Source: a virus (taxonomy: Duplodnaviria; Caudoviricetes). From it: 26,081 nt of DNA. Every line of letters starts with the position of its first letter. Positions within the stretch are counted from its first letter, which is position 1. Below the pieces are notes generated by a model. The model saw only the letters and a list, made by a program, of their open reading frames with translations. It searched no databases and was not told where the DNA came from. The position numbers were made by a program, and so were the translations under genes. This document shows positions 1,710 through 19,535 of the stretch, in pieces. The DNA lies in the IMG/VR virus record IMGVR_UViG_3300011335_000415, positions 1 to 26,081 of that record; one strand, written 5' to 3'.

Positions 1710-2682
1710 AGTTATACTTTGTTTTGGCCCATTCAAAAAGATCATTTCCCATCTTGATCCTTTCTTCTGGATTGTTTATTAAATAGGTTAAATGTTTATA
1801 CCAGTCTTTTTGATTCTCTACCCATAGCACTGGTGCATCTGCATCCACACTATATGGCTCTACCTTACTCACTATGCATGGCACTCTCTTGCTTGCTGCC
1901 TCTAATATTTTTAGATTACTCTTGCATGCATGCCAGTCACTTTCTTGCAATGGGATCAGCATAATGTCTGCCTCCTCAAAATGGCTCATGTATGCATTTG
2001 GCAAAGTAGATGCAAGCTTCTTATTTGGCAGTCTGCCACCATCTGTGAACATGCTCCATAGCTTATCCCAGTACTCCTTACTTATTGGATCACTATCTGT
2101 ATAGCCACCTAGCACCATCTCTATGTTATCAAAGTGATGCAAGCGCTTCACTGGTCCTCTAAGCAGCTTGATATCATCCATATGAGTAGATCCACCACCC
2201 CAGAAGATACGCACCTTATCACTAGGCTTTTTATCCTCTGTGTATTGATGCTGGCCTAATGGTATGCAATTTGGTAGTATTACTACTGAATTATGATATT
2301 TTCTTAACTTCTGAGCTAGCCTCTCATTAGTGCATGTGATCAGATCAGCATTCTCTATGTTCTTTAGCACTCGCTCTCTTTGAGGTGCATAGAATTTATG
2401 CAATGGGTGATTATATGGCAGATCCCAGTCATCATCCATATCCATCACTACTTTGTAATGCTTTTTAACTTCTGCCCAGTTCTCATCAAATGGTGAGAAT
2501 CTATTAAATAGGAATATATCAAAGTCTCTCTCTTTGAGTATCTCTTCAGTAGGTACATTACATACATGATTATATGAATCTGGTAAGAAGGCTAAAGGCA
2601 GCATTACCCTATGCCATCCACATCCACTTACTTTCTGGCTAATTCCTAGCACTTGTATTATTTCTTTATCTGCCCTGGCCAC
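1654..2682 (-). CDS. Glycosyltransferase, GT-B fold (GT4-like)
   Basis: SGCGWHRV, VVMDMDDDW, ADLITCTNERLA, ILPNCI, IFWGGGSTH, and KSNLKILEAA..VPCIVS..EPY motifs. Start placed at GTG 2682, overlapping the upstream small gene; the track's 2751 start lies deep inside that gene. Confidence 0.85.
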   Translation of the reverse strand: MARADKEIIQVLGISQKVSGCGWHRVMLPLAFLPDSYNHVCNVPTEEILKERDFDIFLFNRFSPFDENWAEVKKHYKVVMDMDDDWDLPYNHPLHKFYAPQRERVLKNIENADLITCTNERLAQKLRKYHNSVVILPNCIPLGQHQYTEDKKPSDKVRIFWGGGSTHMDDIKLLRGPVKRLHHFDNIEMVLGGYTDSDPISKEYWDKLWSMFTDGGRLPNKKLASTLPNAYMSHFEEADIMLIPLQESDWHACKSNLKILEAASKRVPCIVSKVEPYSVDADAPVLWVENQKDWYKHLTYLINNPEERIKMGNDLFEWAKTKYNYEHISKLRREAYADLIKA

Positions 2683-2791
2683 GATATGTCTTTGGTTTTG
2701 GTGTATGTTTATTGTAGCTCTTTTGAGCTGATCCTTTTTTGCGCTTGCCAAAGCTAACTTTTCTAGCGTCTGATCCTTTTGCTTTTGCCAT
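2666..2791 (-). CDS. Small basic phage protein ending in YRGQGR (41 aa)
   Basis: Hand-translated: MAKAKGSDARKVSFGKRKKGSAQKSYNKHTPKPKTYRGQGR*. I recognise the K-rich peptide ending in YRGQG as a recurrent type of small phage gene. Confidence 0.75.
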   Translation of the reverse strand: MAKAKGSDARKVSFGKRKKGSAQKSYNKHTPKPKTYRGQGR

Positions 2792-2824
2792 ATATTATTT
2801 ATTTAGCACAATCTATTGTGCAGT

Positions 2825-3064
2825 TTACTTAATTTTTTGCCCAATGAATCCAGCACCGAAGATGATCGCCACAAACTGGCTCACCTCAAATGGTAGAAAA
2901 TAAAACACTACAGACATCCACACACTAAGGCATGTCACACAATCAAAAGGTTTAAGCCTTTGCTCAAATGGAATGTGCCATACCTTTTTTATAATATAAA
3001 CTATTTTGGCCACATTCACAAAGTAATAAGCAAAAAAGAATCCAGCTAATGCTATTGTTATCAT
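2825..3064 (-). CDS. Small membrane protein with CxxC (KPFDCVTCLSVW), DUF1360-like
   Basis: Hydrophobic segments flank a CxxCxxxW motif. Its ATG is the last 3 nt of the final array junction. Confidence 0.7.
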   Translation of the reverse strand: MITIALAGFFFAYYFVNVAKIVYIIKKVWHIPFEQRLKPFDCVTCLSVWMSVVFYFLPFEVSQFVAIIFGAGFIGQKIK

Positions 3065-3085
3065 AGGTTATTTGTTTTGGTTTAG

Positions 3086-3156
3086 TAGTCAGGACAGGAT
3101 TTGAACCTGTATCTACCATATCAATATGGGGGCGTTACCAATTACGCAACCTGACT
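3086..3156 (-). tRNA. tRNA-like element or pseudo-tRNA with a non-canonical anticodon arm
   Basis: Acceptor stem AGTCAGG/CCTGACT, D-arm GCGT-AATTGGTA-ACGC, T-arm ACAGG-TTCAAAT-CCTGT. The anticodon arm CCAT-ATTGAT-ATGG has a 6-nt loop, so no isotype can be assigned. No encoded CCA. Confidence 0.7.
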
Positions 3157-3160
3157 ATTT

Positions 3161-3269
3161 TGCTCGTCTTTCCGAGCAGTCAAAGTATTGTTGTTACGAG
3201 TGTACTTCAACCTCGTGTTCACTTTCTTTTAAACATATCCGTTGTGAACAATGGCGTTGATATGTCTTT
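3161..3269 (-). ncRNA. Candidate structured RNA (pseudoknot plus two hairpins)
   Basis: Minus strand: GACATATC/GATATGTT stem whose loop TGTTCAC is complementary to downstream GTGAACA; ACGAG/CTCGT hairpin; TGCTCG-GAAAGA-CGAGCA hairpin. Confidence 0.4.
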
Positions 3270-3271
3270 GC

Positions 3272-3291
3272 AGTCAGGACAGGATTTGAAC
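3272..3291 (-). repeat. Exact 20-bp duplicate of the 3' end of the tRNA-like element
   Basis: agtcaggacaggatttgaac at 3272-3291 is identical to 3087-3106. Confidence 0.9.
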
Positions 3292-3336
3292 TTTAAGTTC
3301 TAATGCTTGTTCATAAGGGATAAATTCTTTGTTCAT
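3274..3336 (-). pseudogene. Truncated cassette gene fused to the tRNA-like 3' fragment
   Basis: MNKEFIPYEQALELK-VQILS*. It starts at a perfect junction ATG, and the last codons and stop come from the duplicated T-loop/acceptor sequence. Confidence 0.6.
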
Positions 3337-3339
3337 AGG

Positions 3340-3762
3340 TTATTTGTTTTGGTTATAGGTTTGGTTGGTTTTTTCTATTGTATAAGGTGCAAAACCATCA
3401 CCAATTGGATTTAATTTATCAATAAGATTTTTAGCTTTTTCAAAAGTCATATTTATACCATACTGTTTTACAATCATTCCATAACAATCAAATATTGAAT
3501 ATTTATCATCATTGACTTCTTTTGTACTATAAACATCTTTATAATATTCCTCCCCATTATCAAAATCCATTCCTGTTTCTTTTGAATAGAAATAAGCATA
3601 ATCGCCATCTTCCCACGCTTTAACTATCTGCTCTTTTTCTTTTTCAAGTAATCTTTCTGCTGAAGCCTTAAAAATAGTTAATCTTGCAAACTCTTGACTT
3701 GTATATTCATTCTTTAAATTATCATTAATTATTTCAATTAATTCTTGCATTGCTGTTTTCAT
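3340..3762 (-). CDS. Hypothetical cassette protein (MKTAMQELIE...EKEKEQI...NQTYNQNK)
   Basis: 140-aa ORF bounded by junction repeats at both ends. Confidence 0.8.
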   Translation of the reverse strand: MKTAMQELIEIINDNLKNEYTSQEFARLTIFKASAERLLEKEKEQIVKAWEDGDYAYFYSKETGMDFDNGEEYYKDVYSTKEVNDDKYSIFDCYGMIVKQYGINMTFEKAKNLIDKLNPIGDGFAPYTIEKTNQTYNQNK

Positions 3763-4069
3763 GGGTTATTTTTTTTTGATAATAAGATAAATTTTTAACC
3801 ATATTTTGTAAATCTTGTCTATTATATGTATAAATTTTTATTTTAATTGTTCTATTATTTTCAAGTATATTTTTTATTTGATTGTAGAAAAATGGCAAAT
3901 CTTTATTGCCTCTAAAATTATTACACTCATTACAAACCCATACTAAATTTTCATGATAATTGTTCCCGCCTTTAGATAATGGCACAATGTGTTCTTTTGT
4001 TTTATAATTTTTTTCATCAAACAGTCTTTCACAATAACAACACCTTGTACTATTAAAATTAATTGCCAT
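3734..4069 (-). CDS. HNH endonuclease
   Basis: CCYC..TKEHIVPLSKGG.N..ENLVWVCNECNNFRG is the HNH motif with zinc ligands. Start placed at ATG 4069, one base after the upstream stop. Confidence 0.88.
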   Translation of the reverse strand: MAINFNSTRCCYCERLFDEKNYKTKEHIVPLSKGGNNYHENLVWVCNECNNFRGNKDLPFFYNQIKNILENNRTIKIKIYTYNRQDLQNMVKNLSYYQKKITHENSNARIN

Positions 4070-4070
4070 A

Positions 4071-4238
4071 TTAATAATCAAATATAAACGCCACTATATC
4101 TTGTTTCTTCCTATTTCTTTTGTAGGCAGCCATGCATTTTTTGCACTGGGTACATCTTCCACTTGACGCTTTTCTATCTACGGCAAAATCTGTCTTAGGT
4201 TTCTTAACCTTGCATTTCGTACACACTTGTTCTTTCAT
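4071..4238 (-). CDS. Small zinc-finger protein (55 aa)
   Basis: Hand-translated: MKEQVCTKCKVKKPKTDFAVDRKASSGRCTQCKKCMAAYKRNRKKQDIVAFIFDY*. Contains CxxC...CxxC and starts at a perfect junction ATG. Confidence 0.75.
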   Translation of the reverse strand: MKEQVCTKCKVKKPKTDFAVDRKASSGRCTQCKKCMAAYKRNRKKQDIVAFIFDY

Positions 4239-4241
4239 AGG

Positions 4242-4490
4242 TTATTTGTTTTGGTTAAGTATTTGTTCTTTTATCCATGAAGCACCACTTATAAACCCTC
4301 TTTGTTCTTCATCATAATACTCTCCTTTAGATATATTTTTTATCTCCTCATCACTTGGTAGTTCTATATAATTGCTTTTTACTATTCTTATAATTTCATC
4401 CATTTCACTTTCTAATAGAATTAGATTATGTTCATCTATAAAATGGTTAAAAAGTTTTTGATGAAAAGAATCTTCTGTATATAGTTTCAT
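4242..4490 (-). CDS. Hypothetical cassette protein, paralogue A (MKLYTE...IELPSDEEI...QILNQNK)
   Basis: 82-aa ORF between junctions; shares three identical DNA blocks with 4765-5001. Confidence 0.8.
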   Translation of the reverse strand: MKLYTEDSFHQKLFNHFIDEHNLILLESEMDEIIRIVKSNYIELPSDEEIKNISKGEYYDEEQRGFISGASWIKEQILNQNK

Positions 4491-4506
4491 ATGTTATTTG
4501 TTTTGG

Positions 4507-4671
4507 TTAATGCCATTTTACTGCAATAGCTTTTTGTGTTAAAATAAAATACGCTGCTTTAATTCTACTCCATAACCCAACCCTATTTAAAGGCTTTGCC
4601 ATATACCATTTTTTATCAATTTATTTACAAGGAAATTCTAAAAGTTCGTGTCTTTCGTAAATTGCTTTCAT
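4507..4671 (-). pseudogene. Small cassette gene interrupted by an in-frame TAA
   Basis: MKAIYERHELLEFPCK*IDKKWYMAKPLNRVGLWSRIKAAYFILTQKAIAVKWH*. The internal stop is at 4621-4623; otherwise the frame fills the whole interval between two junctions. Confidence 0.6.
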
Positions 4672-4674
4672 AGG

Positions 4675-4761
4675 TTATTTGTTTTTAAATTTTTCAGTAA
4701 TTCTACCTAATAAATACCCCATAATAAAGCACCACATATAAATAATTTGTTCTTTACTCAT
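4675..4761 (-). CDS. 28-aa predicted single-pass membrane peptide
   Basis: MSKEQIIYMWCFIMGYLLGRITEKFKNK*; both start and stop are supplied by junction repeats. Confidence 0.6.
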   Translation of the reverse strand: MSKEQIIYMWCFIMGYLLGRITEKFKNK

Positions 4762-4764
4762 ATT

Positions 4765-5001
4765 TTATTTGTTTTGGTTAAGTATTTGTTTTTTTACCCA
4801 TTTAGCACCATAAATTGCAGAACCACTATCTCCACCATATCCCCATTTAAAATACTTTTCTATCTCCTCATCACTTGGTAGTTCTATTGGTGTTTCTTGA
4901 GATAATAAATATTCATTAGTGAACATATATGTATCATCTTGTTTCTGCAACCTTGCTCTGCTAAGCATTATATCTACTTGTTCTTCTGTATATAGTTTCA
5001 T
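4765..5001 (-). CDS. Hypothetical cassette protein, paralogue B (MKLYTE...IELPSDEEI...QILNQNK)
   Basis: 78-aa ORF; its ATGA overlaps the sigma-like gene stop. Confidence 0.8.
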   Translation of the reverse strand: MKLYTEEQVDIMLSRARLQKQDDTYMFTNEYLLSQETPIELPSDEEIEKYFKWGYGGDSGSAIYGAKWVKKQILNQNK

Positions 5002-5540
5002 ATGTTATTTTTAGTGATACATAATGTTTTTAATTCTGCCCTGGTCTTACGAATAATATCTTTTACATGCTTCTCTGGTATATTATAAAACTCAGCCACT
5101 TTCTTGCACGATCTTACCTCCACATACTTAGTAAATAATATAGCCTCATGTGCATGCATCTCATCCTCTGCATGCTTATCATATAATCTTTGAGATGCTA
5201 TACTAGCAAATTTAGGATTTAATTCTGGTAATTTAGTCTGGCATCTTAAATATTCTATAGCCTTATCATAATCAGACTGCCTAAATTTTTTATAGAATCT
5301 ACTGGTAGAACTAAAGGCCATGTTAGTAATAATCTTTATAGAGAATCCTATAAGGCCATTAGAGTCAAAAATAGACTTGATTTTGTCACAATCATAAGAA
5401 AGTAAGGTCAAAGCCATTTCTTGCCTTAAATCATCTTGTAAATCTATAGGATGCACAGACTTGATCAGTCGGCATATCTCTGGATGTTTATAGATATACT
5501 CTATAATCTCATTACATGTACTCGGTTTGCTTTTTTCCAT
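4998..5540 (-). CDS. Sigma-70/ECF-like transcription factor
   Basis: Region-2-like DDLRQEMALTLL segment and C-terminal region-4 HTH SCKKVAEFYNIPEKHVKDIIRKTRAELK; size is typical of ECF sigma factors. Confidence 0.65.
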   Translation of the reverse strand: MEKSKPSTCNEIIEYIYKHPEICRLIKSVHPIDLQDDLRQEMALTLLSYDCDKIKSIFDSNGLIGFSIKIITNMAFSSTSRFYKKFRQSDYDKAIEYLRCQTKLPELNPKFASIASQRLYDKHAEDEMHAHEAILFTKYVEVRSCKKVAEFYNIPEKHVKDIIRKTRAELKTLCITKNNI

Positions 5541-5776
5541 TTTTTCCTATTTTGCTCATAATCAATTAGTTAATATATTTTCTGTACTTCTGTACTCGGT
5601 TTAGGCCTATAAAAATGAAAATGAAATTTGATTTTATCTTTTCTTTATGAAATATAAGAAATATTCTACTTTTTTTAGTAAACCGAGTACACGAGTACAT
5701 GATTTACTGATTTTCAATTAGTTATAGTGTACTCGGTTTGTTTTTAAACCGAGTACAACCGAGTACACCGAGTACA
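5517..5776. repeat. Iteron-like repeat cluster, putative replication origin
   Basis: Eight copies of the core CGAGTACA: reverse at 5517, 5591, 5728; forward at 5684, 5692, 5750, 5760, 5769. Five extend to AAACCGAGTACA. They flank an AT-rich stretch directly downstream of the primase-helicase. Confidence 0.75.
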
Positions 5777-5866
5777 TTATTTTAAAGTTACAACAAATTT
5801 AGTACCTTTCCATACAAATATACCACCTTTTGGATTAGCTTGTAGCCATTTCTCAAAAGCTACCAT
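5777..5866 (-). CDS. Possible 29-aa protein
   Basis: MVAFEKWLQANPKGGIFVWKGTKFVVTLK*; the start overlaps the primase stop and the ORF ends at the last iteron. Confidence 0.45.
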   Translation of the reverse strand: MVAFEKWLQANPKGGIFVWKGTKFVVTLK

Positions 5867-9038: not shown

Positions 9039-9046
9039 CAAATATA
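9039..9046 (-). promoter_or_regulatory. Bacteroidota-type -7 promoter element (leftward)
   Basis: TATATTTG on the minus strand matches TAnnTTTG, ~20 nt upstream of ATG 9017. Confidence 0.65.
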
Positions 9047-9094
9047 AATAAAAAAAAATTTAAAAAAAATATTTTTTTATTAAAAATATATTCC

Positions 9095-9102
9095 TATATT
9101 TG
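9095..9102 (+). promoter_or_regulatory. Bacteroidota-type -7 promoter element (rightward)
   Basis: TATATTTG ~35 nt upstream of ATG 9137, in the divergent intergenic region. Confidence 0.65.
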
Positions 9103-9136: not shown

Positions 9137-9727
9137 ATGGCATTAACAAAATCTGGAGGTTTAAATACAATGTACCTCTCCATTGCAGACGGCAATTTAG
9201 TACGCCAACACAAAGAAGCAAACCAGTTCACCACTCAGCGCATTACTAAGACTGGCAAAGTAGTGCATGAAGAATTTTTTAAAGAGCTTACTGGCAAGCT
9301 TACTGGAATCTCTACAAGAGAGAATGACTATGGAAAGCAATGGCAGCTTACATTTGTAGATGATGAGTCTACATTTGTAGTAAGCATTGGCTATTCTAGC
9401 AGATATGCTGCATCATTCTTAAAAGCATTACCTAATGTAAATTTGAACAAAGAATTTAGGTTAATGCCATGGGCAATGAAGGATAAAATAGATCCTACTA
9501 AGACTATCACTGGTATTACATTATATCAAAATGATGTGAAGATAGCACCTTATTACACAAAAGAGAATCCAAACGGATTACCTCAAATGCAAAAGATTAA
9601 GGTAAAAGGTAAGGAGCAATGGGATGATTCAGAGATGATGGCATTCCTAGAAAATATGGCTACTAGTATCTTTACTACATTGACGGCTACTGAGCTGGAG
9701 GATGATGATGATACTGCACCTTTTTAG
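9137..9727 (+). CDS. Probable single-stranded DNA-binding protein
   Basis: Acidic C-terminal tail ELEDDDDTAPF and a beta-rich core; located next to an exonuclease. Confidence 0.6.
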   Translation: MALTKSGGLNTMYLSIADGNLVRQHKEANQFTTQRITKTGKVVHEEFFKELTGKLTGISTRENDYGKQWQLTFVDDESTFVVSIGYSSRYAASFLKALPNVNLNKEFRLMPWAMKDKIDPTKTITGITLYQNDVKIAPYYTKENPNGLPQMQKIKVKGKEQWDDSEMMAFLENMATSIFTTLTATELEDDDDTAPF

Positions 9728-12352: not shown

Positions 12353-13579
12353 ATGCAATTAAGGGATTATCAAGTAGATATATCTGAGCAAGCAGTGCAA
12401 ATCTTAAAAGAATTTGGCCTGGTGTATTTAGCCATGCAAGTACGCACTGGAAAGACTATCACCAGCTTGCACATTGCTAGTTTGATGGGTGCTAAAAAAG
12501 TATTATTTGTTACAAAGAAAAAAGCAATTTCTAGCATCCAGGATGATTATGATAATAGTAACTGCTTATATGATATTAATATTATTAACTATGAGTCTGT
12601 GCATAAAGCAGTGCAGAATTATAGCTTGATCATTATAGATGAGGCACATGCGCTAGGGCAGTATCCTATACCATCTGAGCGCACAAAAGAATTAAAAAAA
12701 ATTTGTGAAGGTAAGCCAGTGATATACTTATCTGGCACACCTAGTCCAGAGACTTATGCTCAGATGTATCACCAGTTCTGGGTAAGCAGTTATTCTCCAT
12801 TTAATGGTTATAAGAACTTCTACGCATGGCATAAGGAGTACGGCATACCAGCTAAAAAATATGTGTATAATAGGGAGCTAGCAGATTATAGCAAAGTGAA
12901 GCAAGAGCGCATCCAGTCTGAGATAGGCCATCTAATGCTCACTTATACTCAAGAGGAGGCTGGATTTGAGGGATTAGTACATGAGACTATACTATATGTG
13001 CCAATGTCTGATAAGGTGAAATGGGCAATAGATCGCATAAAGAAGGATAAGCTATTTAGGACCAAAGATGGCCAGGTGATACTTGCTGATACGGCAGTGA
13101 AGGAGATGCAGAAGATACACCAGATATGCTCTGGATCAGTCAAGACTGAGGATGGCAATGCAGTGATATTTGATGATACAAAGGCTAACTTTATAAAGGA
13201 GCGCTTTAAAGGCCAAAAGATAGCCATATTTTACAAGTACATAGCTGAGGGATTGCAGCTTAGAGTAACTTTTGCTGGCAAGATTATAGAAGATCCAATA
13301 GCTTTTAATGAGGCTACTGGTGATGTGGTATTCATATCTCAGATCCAATCTGGTAGAGAGGGGATAAATTTAAGCACTGCTGAGGCTTTAGTCATGTATA
13401 ATATTGATTTTTCGGCAGTTAGCTACTGGCAATCTAGGGCCAGGATGCAGACAAAGGATCGCACAGAGGCCTCTCAAGTATTCTGGGTATTCACCAGAGG
13501 AGGCATAGAGGAGCGCATTTTTGTGATGGTGCAGAATAAAAAAGACTACACTTTAAGCCACTTTAAAAAATTTATTTAA
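12353..13579 (+). CDS. Superfamily 2 (SNF2-like/DEAH) helicase
   Basis: LRDYQ, RTGKT, IIIDEAH, LSGTP, SGREGINL and QSRAR motifs. Confidence 0.9.
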   Translation: MQLRDYQVDISEQAVQILKEFGLVYLAMQVRTGKTITSLHIASLMGAKKVLFVTKKKAISSIQDDYDNSNCLYDINIINYESVHKAVQNYSLIIIDEAHALGQYPIPSERTKELKKICEGKPVIYLSGTPSPETYAQMYHQFWVSSYSPFNGYKNFYAWHKEYGIPAKKYVYNRELADYSKVKQERIQSEIGHLMLTYTQEEAGFEGLVHETILYVPMSDKVKWAIDRIKKDKLFRTKDGQVILADTAVKEMQKIHQICSGSVKTEDGNAVIFDDTKANFIKERFKGQKIAIFYKYIAEGLQLRVTFAGKIIEDPIAFNEATGDVVFISQIQSGREGINLSTAEALVMYNIDFSAVSYWQSRARMQTKDRTEASQVFWVFTRGGIEERIFVMVQNKKDYTLSHFKKFI

Positions 13580-13610
13580 AAAAATTTTTTTTTATTAAAT
13601 TAAAATACCT

Positions 13611-13618
13611 TAGCTTTG
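13611..13618 (+). promoter_or_regulatory. Bacteroidota-type -7 promoter element
   Basis: TAGCTTTG ~22 nt upstream of ATG 13641, preceded by A/T tracts similar to those at 9059-9090. Confidence 0.6.
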
Positions 13619-16161: not shown

Positions 16162-16169
16162 CAAATTTA
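16162..16169 (-). promoter_or_regulatory. Possible -7 promoter element for the lysis genes
   Basis: TAAATTTG overlapping the tail-fibre stop, ~15 nt upstream of ATG 16146. Confidence 0.35.
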
Positions 16170-19100
16170 GGATTTATTTTCTAATGCAGTTACTTTAGCT
16201 GATAATTCTTGAATAGCAGCTACTAATACTGGTATTAATTCTGTATATTTTACACTTAAATATTCAGTATCATCATTCTCATCAAATGATTTAGATAAAT
16301 CTATTACTTGAGGGAATACTTTTTCTACATCTTGTGCGATTAAACCTAAATTATGTTTTTTTGTAGCATCAGATTTCCAGCTATAATCAACGGCTCTTAT
16401 ACTTGATAATTTTTCAATTGCATTATCAATCATTCCGTTAATATTCTTTAATCTTTCATCAGAAAATGTACTCCAAGAGGTTGAGCCATTAGGTAAATAA
16501 ACTCCAGTAGTTGAATTTGTTATTGTAATCCTTCCACTTGTCGCATAATTAGCTAAACTTAAATCATAACTTTGAAAAGATCCTGATATTTGATTACCCT
16601 GACCTAAATACCTACCCTCATCATTTACACCAAATGCTATAAATTGTTTTACATAAGCTGTTGTATTTACAACAAATTGGTAGTTAGATGCATTTGTTGT
16701 AGTGCCTATTAATACATTACCCCCATCCGTAATCCTCATACTTTCGGTATATCCAACATTATTAGACCTTCTAAATACCAATGTTTGGTTTGTAGCAGAA
16801 GCACTATTTATTGCATCAATATAACCATACCCTCCAGATGGGAATATATCTATATATTGAGTAGTATCAGCAGTTCTTCTTATTCTTAGATCCCCTACAA
16901 TATCCATTTTAGCAGCTGGCGAACTTGTTCCTATACCTACATTGCCACCTGTAAAATTAAAATTACCACCACTAATATCGTTTTTAAATGCAAGGTTAGT
17001 CCCATCGTGCTGAATATACCCCCATCTTGTACCGCCACCGCTGTTTGAAAATCTTATATAAGAAGTATTTTGTAAATCAACATACGAACCTTGTGATATG
17101 ATGTTACCACCAGCCGTTACACTACTTGAGAATGTAGCAGCACCAGTAGAGGAGATTGTTAAAGCAGGTGCGTTATTTGCATAAATAAACACAGATTTTG
17201 TAGAAGGTGCTAATAAATATAAATCAGTTGCATTTGCATAAATACCATCACTTTGTAATTCAGTATAAATACTACCAGAGCCAGTTCTTCTAACATTACC
17301 ACTAAACGTAGCACTCGTTCCACTCAATGCTCCAGTAAGTGAGGTAGTTCCATTTACTTTGAATTTAAAACCACTAGCTGTGGTATCTCCAATAGCTATA
17401 CCTGTACCATCATCATATATTAAGCTATCCCCTATTGTACTTGCACCAGTAAACTTAGGTAGGTAGTTTGTTGTACCAGTACCAGTCACTGGATTAGTTA
17501 AAGCATTTTGCTTGCTATTAAATGTAGTCCAGTCTGTGCTAGATAAGAATCCAGACTGAGAGCCAGATGCTTGCTTCACCTGGATAGTTGTACCAGATCC
17601 TATCACTGCATTAGATCCACCAGTGATGGTAAGCACTGAGCTTGTACTCTCTGTTAAATTGCCAAATGTTAAAGCAGACTGCTTAGCATTGAATGTACTC
17701 CAGTCTGTGCTACTTAATGCACCATTTGCAGATGCACTAGCCAATCCTAAAGATAGCTGCTGAGTAGATAAGCTCAAACCATTAGCAGTGCCTAATGTTA
17801 CTGCACTATGTCTAGCAGCAGTATTAGCAGCTACATCTGTGTTAGCACTTACTCTACCCTCTGTATAGTATAAATTTGTACCCTCTGCTAAATCAGTAGT
17901 ACTCTTTGCTGCAAATGCAGTATTAAATCTACTTGCAGTATAATATAAATTTGTAGATCCCTCTGTAACTTGATCTGTATTATAGTCACCACTAGCAGCA
18001 GTCACTGCACCAGTGCGGCCAAATACACTACTTACACCAGTTACTAAAGCACCTACATTACCATTTAATTTTTGAATAGCAGTTAGCACACTATCACTTG
18101 ATGTGATTGCACCAGCGCCACTTGTATATCCAGTTAATGTAGAGCCTATCGCTCTAGCATTTGTAAAGTATAAATTACCACTCTCAGTCACATCACTAGT
18201 CACTAAACTCACTGCACCAGTATAACCATTTACTGAACTTACTGCATCTGTATTATCTACCTTATCCCATGTAGATCCGTTAAATATAATCCAGTCACCT
18301 ACTTTCCAATCTGTGATACCATTGATATTAGTAGATCCAGCTACAGACACTATATAGTAGTGACCTTTTGTACCTACGCTAGATGTAATGCTAGGAGTAT
18401 TAGTGCTAGCATTCCATGTACCCTGGTACATCACTCCACCTACTAAAGCACTGATCTGATTTTGCACCTTACCAAATGCGCCTAAGATTGTATCAGTATC
18501 AGCGATTGTACCACCACCAGTCAAATTTAATCCAGTTAGGACCTTACCAGTTACTGCACTATTTACCAAACTAGGGTTAGCATATGTACCAGATAACTCA
18601 CCACCAGCAGCTATGCCACTTATAGTAGTTAAGTAAGTATTAGTATCATAGCTGATCACACCAGCAGTAGACTTAACAAAGCCAGTACCACCTAGAGCAG
18701 CTTGCTTATTATTAAATGTATTCCAGTTAGCGCTTGTAAGTAATCCAGTAGTGCTAGTTGATGCAGTAGGAATTGCAGTCTGAGATGCAGCAGTCACTAA
18801 ACCTTTTGCATTCACCTGGATAGTAGGTACACTTGTACTTGTACCATATGATCCTACATTACTATTTACACTAGCTAAAGTCATAGTAGCACCGCTACCA
18901 ATCACTGCGCCAGTTCCACCACTTACACTAATATCACTACTAGTTAAATTTCCAGTAGTAAGTGCAGCTTGTTTAGAATTAAATGTATTCCAATCAGTAC
19001 TACTTAAATATCCATTGCTAGATGTACCAGCTTGAGATATACTTACCACACCACTTACCTCACTAATTGGAGCAATAGCACTAATAGCATTATGTACTCT

Positions 19101-19535
19101 AGCATCTGTATAGTAAAGATTTGTACCCTCAGCTAAATTAGATGTACTCTTAGCTGCTAAAGCATTATCAAATCTTGTTTGTGTATAATATAAATTTGAT
19201 CCTTCTGTAACTTGAGATGTAGTATAATCACCAGTCTGTGCAGTTACTGCACCAGTTCTACCAAATACGCTAGTCACTGGATTATCTTCTGAGCTATTCA
19301 CCCACGCTGATCCATTATATTTTAACACTTGCCCACTCGCTGGAGCAGCAATAGTTACACCGCTTAATTGATCTAATGTATAATCTCCCTCTTGAGCTAC
19401 CACATTGCCTACTCTACCAAACACTGAGTACACATTATTAGGCAAAGGATAAGCACCAGTTTGTACCTGGATATTAACTATATTATTAGTTACATTTACC
19501 TCTATTATCTGATCTGTTACATTTACTATCTCCAT
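16167..19535 (-). CDS. Tail fibre with C-terminal intramolecular chaperone (peptidase S74)
   Basis: G/S/T-rich repetitive shaft, GNVGIGT repeats, SDERLKNI...GLIAQDVEKVFP...YTELIPVLVAAIQEL and a terminal coiled coil. Confidence 0.9.
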   Translation of the reverse strand: MEIVNVTDQIIEVNVTNNIVNIQVQTGAYPLPNNVYSVFGRVGNVVAQEGDYTLDQLSGVTIAAPASGQVLKYNGSAWVNSSEDNPVTSVFGRTGAVTAQTGDYTTSQVTEGSNLYYTQTRFDNALAAKSTSNLAEGTNLYYTDARVHNAISAIAPISEVSGVVSISQAGTSSNGYLSSTDWNTFNSKQAALTTGNLTSSDISVSGGTGAVIGSGATMTLASVNSNVGSYGTSTSVPTIQVNAKGLVTAASQTAIPTASTSTTGLLTSANWNTFNNKQAALGGTGFVKSTAGVISYDTNTYLTTISGIAAGGELSGTYANPSLVNSAVTGKVLTGLNLTGGGTIADTDTILGAFGKVQNQISALVGGVMYQGTWNASTNTPSITSSVGTKGHYYIVSVAGSTNINGITDWKVGDWIIFNGSTWDKVDNTDAVSSVNGYTGAVSLVTSDVTESGNLYFTNARAIGSTLTGYTSGAGAITSSDSVLTAIQKLNGNVGALVTGVSSVFGRTGAVTAASGDYNTDQVTEGSTNLYYTASRFNTAFAAKSTTDLAEGTNLYYTEGRVSANTDVAANTAARHSAVTLGTANGLSLSTQQLSLGLASASANGALSSTDWSTFNAKQSALTFGNLTESTSSVLTITGGSNAVIGSGTTIQVKQASGSQSGFLSSTDWTTFNSKQNALTNPVTGTGTTNYLPKFTGASTIGDSLIYDDGTGIAIGDTTASGFKFKVNGTTSLTGALSGTSATFSGNVRRTGSGSIYTELQSDGIYANATDLYLLAPSTKSVFIYANNAPALTISSTGAATFSSSVTAGGNIISQGSYVDLQNTSYIRFSNSGGGTRWGYIQHDGTNLAFKNDISGGNFNFTGGNVGIGTSSPAAKMDIVGDLRIRRTADTTQYIDIFPSGGYGYIDAINSASATNQTLVFRRSNNVGYTESMRITDGGNVLIGTTTNASNYQFVVNTTAYVKQFIAFGVNDEGRYLGQGNQISGSFQSYDLSLANYATSGRITITNSTTGVYLPNGSTSWSTFSDERLKNINGMIDNAIEKLSSIRAVDYSWKSDATKKHNLGLIAQDVEKVFPQVIDLSKSFDENDDTEYLSVKYTELIPVLVAAIQELSAKVTALENKS

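Follow-up and report, generated by a model that had tools for sequence, protein, structure and literature searches.

A 21-bp sequence was found to serve as a stop/start joint in many aquatic phages. Genes and half-genes are re-paired at this joint, in our judgement probably by general short-homology recombination between co-infecting phages and not by a dedicated recombinase. It was followed up from the window, the whole stretch of 26,081 nucleotides analysed here, which belongs to an uncultured phage of ~36 kb whose host is probably a member of the Bacteroidota. No cultured representative was found: none of 50,697 phage records matched the cargo protein, and the sole match of the junction, 26 nt in Flavobacterium elemo phages (E 0.2), was judged uninformative. 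The array, its two conserved flanks and the joints within its genes are as follows, with the basis of each assignment in brackets.

4998..5540, minus strand: sigma-like gene, conserved upstream flank (relatives; weak Sigma70_r4 match only)
4999..5019, minus strand: Junction 1, with 6 mismatches; it overlaps the sigma-like gene at its end (motif match)
4765..5001, minus strand: cassette for a 78-aa MKLYTE-family protein (ORF; family searches)
4864..4887, minus strand: internal joint ELPSDEE in the 78-aa gene (repeat comparison, linkage)
4759..4779, minus strand: Junction 2, 2 mismatches, NQNK-stop (motif match)
4675..4761, minus strand: cassette for a 28-aa hydrophobic peptide without family match (ORF; family searches)
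4669..4689, minus strand: Junction 3, 4 mismatches, KNK-stop (motif match)
4507..4671, minus strand: 54-codon gene broken by an in-frame TAA (ORF)
4488..4508, minus strand: Junction 4, 1 mismatch; the upstream gene stops at its first base (motif match)
4242..4490, minus strand: cassette for an 82-aa MKLYTE-family protein (ORF)
4344..4367, minus strand: the ELPSDEE joint again, within the 82-aa paralogue (repeat comparison)
4236..4256, minus strand: Junction 5, exact, NQNK-stop (motif match)
4071..4238, minus strand: 55-aa four-cysteine zinc-finger-like protein (resembles N-terminal domains of phage endonucleases)
3734..4069, minus strand: HNH-domain protein (domain match)
3760..3780, minus strand: Junction 6, 4 mismatches; an A-run shifts the stop out of the HNH frame (motif match)
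3340..3762, minus strand: cassette for a 140-aa helical protein of the MKTAMQEL family (family search)
3625..3649, minus strand: internal joint LEKEKEQI in the MKTAMQEL-family gene, a half-gene swap site (linkage)
3334..3354, minus strand: Junction 7, exact; it ends the 140-aa gene with NQNK-stop and gives the truncated gene its ATG (motif match)
3274..3336, minus strand: truncated MNKEFIPYEQALELKELGF-family gene, fused to a tRNA-like 3' half (ORF and RNA comparison)
3257..3291, minus strand: second tRNA-like element, 3' half only (T arm and acceptor strand; repeat comparison)
3085..3156, minus strand: tRNA-like element with a 4-nt loop replacing the anticodon loop (RF00005, 49.2 bits; ARAGORN)
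3062..3082, minus strand: Junction 8, exact, untranslated, source of the ATG for the conserved 79-aa gene downstream (motif match)
2825..3064, minus strand: gene of a 79-aa membrane-like protein, conserved downstream flank (relatives)

All eight copies named in the original prediction, three of them exact, are present on the minus strand, and no copy with up to 3 mismatches lies elsewhere in the window, as had been claimed. Using this cutoff, five copies were counted versus 0.01 expected (100 shuffles). The copies with 4 and 6 mismatches are weak, and their position alone makes them convincing. Junction 1 shares 29 identical bp with Junction 4 plus its downstream bases. Typically the joint supplies the last four codons and the stop of one gene, followed by the start codon of the next. 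The gene ends ascribed to it were found as described (NQNK-stop from the copies at 4759, 4236 and 3334, KNK-stop from 4669), the copies at 3062 and 4488 are indeed kept without being translated in that frame, and the zinc-finger/HNH boundary is motif-free. The ATG-to-ATG spacings of 240, 90, 181, 252, 476, 426 and 272 bp agree with the proposed unit sizes of ~90 to ~480 bp.

The cargo had been called mostly unrelated, which is correct apart from the paralogues at 4765-5001 and 4242-4490. Two units are broken: 4507-4671 by its in-frame stop, with a distal part matching positions 26-54 of 58 of phrog_21988, and 3274-3336 by truncation and fusion to the tRNA half. At another locus (L013) a 65% identical HNH gene carries the exact joint at its start and the joint core at its end. 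Of 84 genes taken to represent those behind the joint, 15 matched a PHROG (6 of them named) and 7 a Pfam family. A viral fold search with the cargo gave no match at E<=0.001, the best rows being uncharacterised proteins of uncultured phages. The MKTAMQEL family comprises 4,500 clusters at 50% identity, and no Pfam family was common to 60 of its members.

Comparing relatives across the slot between the flanks, as the prediction had proposed, gene content was found to vary. The slot holds 1.9 kb in the window versus nothing (3) or one small insert (2) in the five closest relatives, which have 91-92% sigma identity. In the two filled ones (L126 and L128) the insert ends in the joint, at the same junction as 3062..3082 of the window. 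In a wider survey of 70 loci with strains resampled, 44 slots were empty and 26 filled, and the joint core preceded the downstream ATG in 10 of the 26 filled versus 1 of the 44 empty ones. As the core is missing directly before the downstream gene in the other 16 filled slots, and only 13 of 70 MKLYTE-family genes sit behind the joint, it is neither necessary for filling nor the sole route. Of the two labels given earlier to genes bordering the slot, “sigma-like” rests on a Sigma70_r4 match that was found but is weak, and “DUF1360-like” found no Pfam match at E<=0.01.

Linkage is broken at the joint. Counted on assembled contigs, 125 of 128 informative pairs from 250 junctions shared one flank only, compared to 12 of 269 pairs at twelve core-gene sites; this comparison is not matched, since the junctions were retrieved by motif and the core controls drawn from relatives. 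A set of 214 junctions yielded 211 pairings, and more than one partner was seen for 24 of 24 recurring downstream and 22 of 24 recurring upstream modules. In 54 of 66 pairs, shared identity stopped at most 4 nt from the joint; in 31 of 34 it stopped within the joint or no more than 4 nt beyond the ATG. Contig links between joint copies, with sides of <31 nt, were not taken as deletions. The original prediction of shared breakpoints with variable cassettes was thereby largely borne out: content varies at the slot, breaks map to the repeat, and near-identical modules occur in other contigs. As genes and half-genes re-pair exactly at the 21-mer, it is likely a shared swap point. The prediction had missed that half-genes are often what is exchanged, and that many phage types have the joint in common. 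The LEKEKEQI and ELPSDEE joints, unrelated in sequence to the 21-mer, break linkage alike (54 of 55 and 19 of 19 pairs sharing one flank only), and the half-gene at 3332-3647 is 97% identical to another locus (L409) from joint to joint and unrelated beyond. Among joint variants, positions 1-5 track the upstream module and 16-18 mostly the downstream one, position 9 varies in both classes, and differences at positions 6-8 and 10-15 are found in <=5% of all pairs. This would place crossovers in the central core, and is also compatible with a fixed point plus mutation.

Mixed pairings of this kind might arise as chimeras where metagenome assemblies meet a short shared repeat. In public runs, depth does spike and contigs do break at each joint, a contig from another study breaks within Junction 4, and the junction at 4236-4256 is unbridged on its upstream side among the contigs listed. 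We nevertheless regard chimeras as a very improbable explanation. One contig, probably from the window's source data, spans 2600-4258 with three junctions and no difference, and a second study contains exact pieces over 4488 (4323-4635) and 4759 (4695-4845). Identical filled slots were found again in separate assemblies (L150/L151/L154, L140/L141, L129/L130), and filled alleles are present in complete genomes with terminal repeats. Part of the interval 4259-4440 is uncovered in the likely source run, which proves nothing.

The suggested search of phage and metagenome assemblies recovered the 21-mer from hundreds of fragments of uncultured aquatic phages. The exact sequence was found in ~260 IMG/VR stretches from different phage types, differing in core modules and genome size, versus 8 stretches in the prokaryote genomes of GTDB (596 Gb); it is therefore no host consensus. 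Complete relatives hold 0-3 copies each. Both counts disagree with a common translation-initiation context, the observation that the prediction had named as speaking against itself. Its claim of conservation at the nucleotide level was upheld: the exact core is kept in 81 of 135 synonymous-pattern matches, though AAC makes up 11-20% of Asn codons, and of 178 exact copies, 54 have no open frame of 25 codons ending in them. The spacer CCT accompanies 58 of the 81 exact cores versus 4 of the 54 others.

The motif might still be kept mainly as a translation signal, for reinitiation or coupling or for the binding of a protein from phage or host, with swapping as a by-product. The A-run at -14 to -11 agrees with the initiation profile of F. 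johnsoniae and is the favoured pattern in Flavobacterium, the joint has no Shine-Dalgarno sequence and no structure, it is retained where untranslated, and in a Draconibacterium assembly one chromosomal acyl-CoA dehydrogenase gene starts with the exact 21-mer. However, the joint has C at -3 and T at -6, where the profile favours A, and the core genes of the window lack it. Together with the scarcity in complete relatives and in prokaryote genomes, and with joints inside coding regions that are equally frozen, this makes a role mainly as a translation signal unlikely in our view. By eye, the Bacteroidota -7 promoter box was matched on neither strand of the joint.

The absence of an integrase, stated in the original prediction, was confirmed: PF00589 was found in 0 of 5 records of the phage group (4 complete), with the control positive in 14 of 14. 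The same records contained no tyrosine or serine recombinase, no reverse transcriptase (PF00078) and no Red-beta/RecT, ERF or Rad52/Sak annealase (searched with PF04404, PF04098 and PF03837). No recombinase or reverse transcriptase was detected in the 90 of 97 clusters of joint neighbours that were scanned, and of 88 other loci, 5 have an ERF gene close to the joint. One candidate helper lies outside the array:

9137..9727, plus strand: predicted OB-fold SSB with an acidic tail (weak fold matches)

This protein gave no fold match at E<=0.001, and the Atlas returned unnamed clusters only. A relationship to the PhiC31 synapse was rejected, its top Z of 5.0 being tied with OB-fold SSBs and reflecting a common fold. 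The SSB-like protein, the exonuclease and the VRR-NUC had been put forward as machinery; the first looks like a plain OB-fold SSB, and nothing links the three to swapping.

A dedicated site-specific recombinase of phage or host, so far unrecognised, could act on the 21-mer via circular cassettes, as an integron integrase acts on attC. The near-invariant core would suit such an enzyme, L126 compared with L125 resembles a single circle crossover at ATGA, and many genes of these phages belong to no family. We consider it improbable. The four complete relatives encode no known recombinase, five of five joints folded as DNA were unstructured (z 0.3-0.8) without attC-like or terminator stem-loop, and the joint has no dyad symmetry. 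Furthermore, sequence-unrelated joints behave alike, at least three crossover registers were seen when relatives were compared at the slot, and the same cargo elsewhere sits behind a different joint that contains a Shine-Dalgarno sequence. The integron likeness drawn in the original prediction is weakened, with no attC-like hairpin, several unrelated joints and no single crossover point evident.

That unrelated joints behave alike in the absence of an integrase, resolvase, reverse transcriptase or known annealase speaks for recombination by short homology rather than for an enzyme of the integron type. Crossing over within the joint would always leave the stop in frame and the start region intact, A-rich, without structure and without a Shine-Dalgarno sequence, and recombinants should therefore be viable. 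Modules bearing the commonest joint would move most, and repeated exchange may hold the joint letter-perfect. First entry into an empty slot might use shorter matches, such as ATGA or, where the sigma-like gene ends, a match of 11 of 12. Host RecA, the annealase of a co-infecting phage, or the exonuclease and SSB of the window phage are candidate enzymes. Several points speak against short-homology recombination: 21 bp is short, entry at ATGA implies 4-bp matches, and the phage group, with no ERF, Rad52/Sak or RecT found in its 5 records, lacks in cis the kind of enzyme that would be most likely.

A constant frame with exchangeable content was also found in RNA. The element at 3085-3156 has acceptor, D and T arms and lacks the canonical 7-nt anticodon loop, and ARAGORN calls no anticodon in its 4-nt loop. 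It belongs to a large phage RNA family with a near-invariant shell and a variable centre (120 different centres among 138), often with several members per contig. In this RNA stretch Rfam detected tRNA alone, the hairpins at 3157-3256 giving no credible match. T4 species 1 RNA and T5 RNA1 are anticodon-less tRNA-shaped phage RNAs. They likewise have a tRNA shell with the anticodon region replaced; the present family differs in that one near-invariant shell carries many centres.

Several known systems resemble the array. Integron cassettes are short, promoterless, same-strand genes in tandem with a repeat at each border, mobilised through IntI, attI and attC. Arrays of mobile single-gene cassettes with border repeats that vary between relatives are common to both; the window differs by the lack of an integrase and attC-like hairpin, by a coding repeat and by the exchange of half-genes. 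Boundary sequences of lambdoid phages were reportedly described by Clark et al. in 2001. Linker-guided modular exchange goes back to Botstein and Campbell, as told in the Discussion of PMC2839356. In both, conserved short border sequences place a module and keep its expression; they are described for large functional modules of related lambdoid phages, versus single mini-genes and half-genes with one near-invariant joint in many lineages here. The closest known system is the PeSL shuffling of the T4-type phages RB49 and phi1 (Arbiol et al. 2010, PMC2839356), and the principle thus has published precedent. PeSL cassettes are intergenic promoter plus terminator units of one phage clade, with mini-circles shown. 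As in the window, ORFans are gained, lost and replaced at a short conserved repeat within variable regions, no integrase was found, short-homology recombination was proposed and integrons served for comparison. In contrast, the present joint is 21 bp long, overlaps coding sequence, is hairpin-free, is documented in assembled sequence, occurs in many phage types and is accompanied by further joints inside genes. Mosaicism driven by Rad52-like recombinases, homology-driven and RecA-independent (De Paepe et al. 2014, PMC3945230), also shuffles genes and leaves homology at mosaic borders; the window phage group differs from it in having no such annealase gene in its 5 records. In the papers searched, no description of the joint and neither its scale nor its dual-coding form was found.

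How phages gain and reorder tiny accessory genes is an old question, to which both illegitimate recombination and linker-guided exchange have long been offered as answers. In the present case one coding joint common to different phage types is a mapped breakpoint over hundreds of loci. As further joints within genes act alongside it, proteins are assembled from halves that can be swapped, and a large unannotated protein family, that of the 4,500 clusters, is defined as a combinatorial library. Such joints break metagenome assemblies, which should be taken as a warning. More speculatively, and with considerable doubt on our part, unrelated freshwater phages may share a community-wide assembly grammar, in which a few letter-perfect joints at gene borders, within genes and in the tRNA-shaped shell generate small effector proteins and RNAs by the thousand, as combinatorial libraries. 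These would probably be directed against host defences, with Shine-Dalgarno-free and Shine-Dalgarno “dialects” re-fitting cargo to different ribosomes. With a 21-bp substrate at hand, linker-guided exchange becomes directly testable.

The 21-bp stop-start repeat expected at the gene borders (the joint) was recovered by a scan of the window. Five copies with at most three mismatches lie on the minus strand, all within 3062-4779, against an expectation of 0.01, and the remaining borders carry three weaker copies (4, 4 and 6 mismatches). The array fills a slot between a sigma-like gene upstream and a 79-aa gene downstream, and holds the following cargo.

Cargo of the array (window positions 3062-5019)
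minus strand, paralogous pair of genes for 78 and 82 aa (MKLYTE family)
minus strand, gene for a 28-aa hydrophobic peptide
minus strand, 54-codon gene with an in-frame stop inside
minus strand, zinc-finger-like gene and HNH gene
minus strand, gene for a 140-aa helical protein (MKTAMQEL family)
minus strand, gene truncated and fused to one half of a tRNA-like element
3085-3156, minus strand, complete tRNA-like element

A single contig, probably the source data, covers 2600-4258 without differences. Two further junctions were crossed by exact pieces from a second study; the upstream side of the 4236-4256 junction found no bridging piece among the matches listed. Conservation at the nucleotide level, as originally noted, was borne out: the near-invariant core was exact in 81 of 135 matches to the synonymous pattern, although AAC accounts for 11-20% of the window's Asn codons, and 54 of 178 exact joint copies did not terminate a long open frame. 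A CCT spacer accompanied the core in 58/81 matches with, versus 4/54 without, the exact form.

The exact 21-mer occurred in approximately 260 IMG/VR stretches, 123 of them among the matches listed; there, 15 of 80 contigs exceeded 45 kb, the largest reaching 287 kb. Proteins of the relative G002 were matched by just 23 of 88 six-kb joint loci, at ≥70% in three. Neighbouring genes included DnaB, replication initiators, terminases, ERF and methylases, with no integrase in the 90 of 97 clusters scanned. Genes behind the joint were short (median 69 aa; ≤120 aa in 159/173), diverse (84 clusters among 157) and in family searches mostly of unknown function. The alternative named beforehand, a common translation-initiation context, did not hold: as the motif was found in only 8 stretches (5 contigs) of prokaryote genomes and in 0, 1, 2 or 3 copies in complete relatives, the joint is not a general start context. 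In a Draconibacterium assembly, one exact copy lies at the start of a chromosomal gene for acyl-CoA dehydrogenase (L332, 1858-3003). In a single case, a gene for the Thoeris inhibitor Tad3 (PF25185) was located about 600 bp from a joint of a 287-kb phage (L009, 1736-2383), a weak hint at anti-defence neighbourhoods.

Breakpoints fell at the repeat, as predicted. The 214 distinct junctions yielded 211 pairings, and 24/24 recurring downstream and 22/24 recurring upstream modules had several partners. After removal of near-duplicates, 125 of 128 informative junction pairs shared one side only, versus 12/269 at twelve core sites; since junctions were fetched by motif and core controls from relatives, this contrast is indicative, not matched. 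Identity shared by module pairs ended at the joint in 54/66 and 31/34 pairs. Pieces of the window's own array recurred elsewhere: 3332-3647, running from an internal joint to the 21-mer, was 97% identical to contig L409 but showed no relation to it past either end, and 4341-4504 matched exactly a contig of another study, which diverges inside the joint. In L013, an HNH gene 65% identical to that of the window has joints on both borders.

Slot content varied among relatives: of 70 loci (sigma identity ≥60%), 44 were empty, and the 26 filled ones comprised 18 distinct forms. The joint core preceded the downstream ATG in 10/26 filled versus 1/44 empty slots; the other 16 filled slots end differently, therefore other joints exist. 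In L124, L125 and L127 merely 10 bp separate the flanking genes, and an estuary contig also carries the empty allele. L126 holds one cassette with an exact joint at its end and only ATGA shared at its left border; L128 shows joint-cargo-joint, the left border lying within an 11-of-12 match at the sigma-like gene end; in L148 and L153 donor core meets recipient inside AAC. The 1.9-kb array of the window was found in none of the relatives; the likely source run contains a second contig, with an MKLYTE-type tail and a joint running directly into the 79-aa gene.

At two constant blocks inside cargo genes, linkage was broken equally (54/55 and 19/19 pairs one-sided). Among 62 MKTAMQEL-family proteins, the same N halves occurred with different C halves and vice versa; this family (4,500 representatives at 50% identity, no Pfam family found) is predicted to fold as a helical hairpin. 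Of 70 MKLYTE-family genes, fetched by protein and not by motif, 13 had the 21-mer upstream and at least 22 ended in a different joint, a GGAGGT Shine-Dalgarno plus ATGA overlap. This second dialect (C-termini QGGNK, QGGEQ; L353, L359, L362, L377 and other loci) hints at exchange between phages with different initiation rules. Constant ends and variable interior are also the design of the tRNA-like element. Its 3' end occurred in approximately 1,400 IMG/VR stretches; both ends were present at 139/154 sites, with a spacing of 50-189 nt; of 138 centres, 120 were distinct, and the joint core followed in only 4/153. Such tRNA-shaped RNAs (window 3085-3156, minus; L421-L556) form a large phage family with a near-invariant acceptor/D/T shell and hypervariable centre, rarely encoding CCA and often present several per contig. 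Between the two tRNA-like pieces, 3157-3256 (minus) contains three or four hairpins without Rfam match (281-nt region, fold z -2.75).

A Bacteroidota host is inferred from the sequence, because the putative capsid protein has its sole cultured matches in Nonlabens phages (24%), one Sediminibacterium MAG contig holds four of the eight prokaryotic motif stretches, and gene starts in the window are A/T-rich without Shine-Dalgarno sequences. The record (26 kb, 74% complete) shares approximately 80-90% DNA identity across much of its length with three complete relatives (35.6-36.1 kb), which carry terminase, portal-like and prohead-protease genes. Immediately downstream of the slot lies a glycosyltransferase, hexapeptide acyltransferase and GT2 cluster (264-2604, minus). 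Between primase and sigma-like gene, non-coding 5551-5780 repeats 8-10 bp words in both orientations, a possible replication origin. A repetitive 1122-aa tail-fibre-like protein with C-terminal chaperone domain (16167-19535, minus) is mosaic across the three complete relatives. Two similar AT-rich 47-nt intergenic blocks (9043-9101, 13564-13616) precede plus-strand gene groups and are possible promoters.

The absence of an integrase noted beforehand was confirmed: profile searches of five records of the phage group, four of them complete, found no tyrosine recombinase, serine recombinase or RT. Folding revealed no hairpin in the joint. The suggested likeness to integrons was not supported, and the array is not an integron. 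Compared to PeSL, the cassette-shuffling repeat of T4-type phages as described in PMC2839356, shuffling works alike, but the joint lacks the stem-loop. General short-homology recombination probably drives the exchange, given that more than one joint is in use and these are unrelated, that crossovers fell in several registers, that variant linkage is graded along the motif, and that neither a hairpin nor a tyrosine or serine recombinase or RT was found. Against it counts that no ERF, Sak or RecT genes were found in this phage group; a 196-aa protein is predicted, from weak matches, to be an OB-fold SSB. A crossover within the joint would recreate the stop together with a start region in which positions -14 to -11 are A. 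According to PMC6847099, A at these positions is enriched in F. johnsoniae start regions, although the favoured bases at -3 and -6 differ from those of the joint. Positive feedback would account for the frozen joint sequence. No prior description of the joint was found in the openly accessible articles searched.

Overall, the joint system is real and well supported. As joint or cargo family also occupy other genome slots in relatives (L135, 10025-10862; L146, 2299; L127, 2652-2852), the sigma-like slot is not the only hot spot but one among several, and the broken cassettes of the array suggest turnover with part of the cargo only weakly selected.
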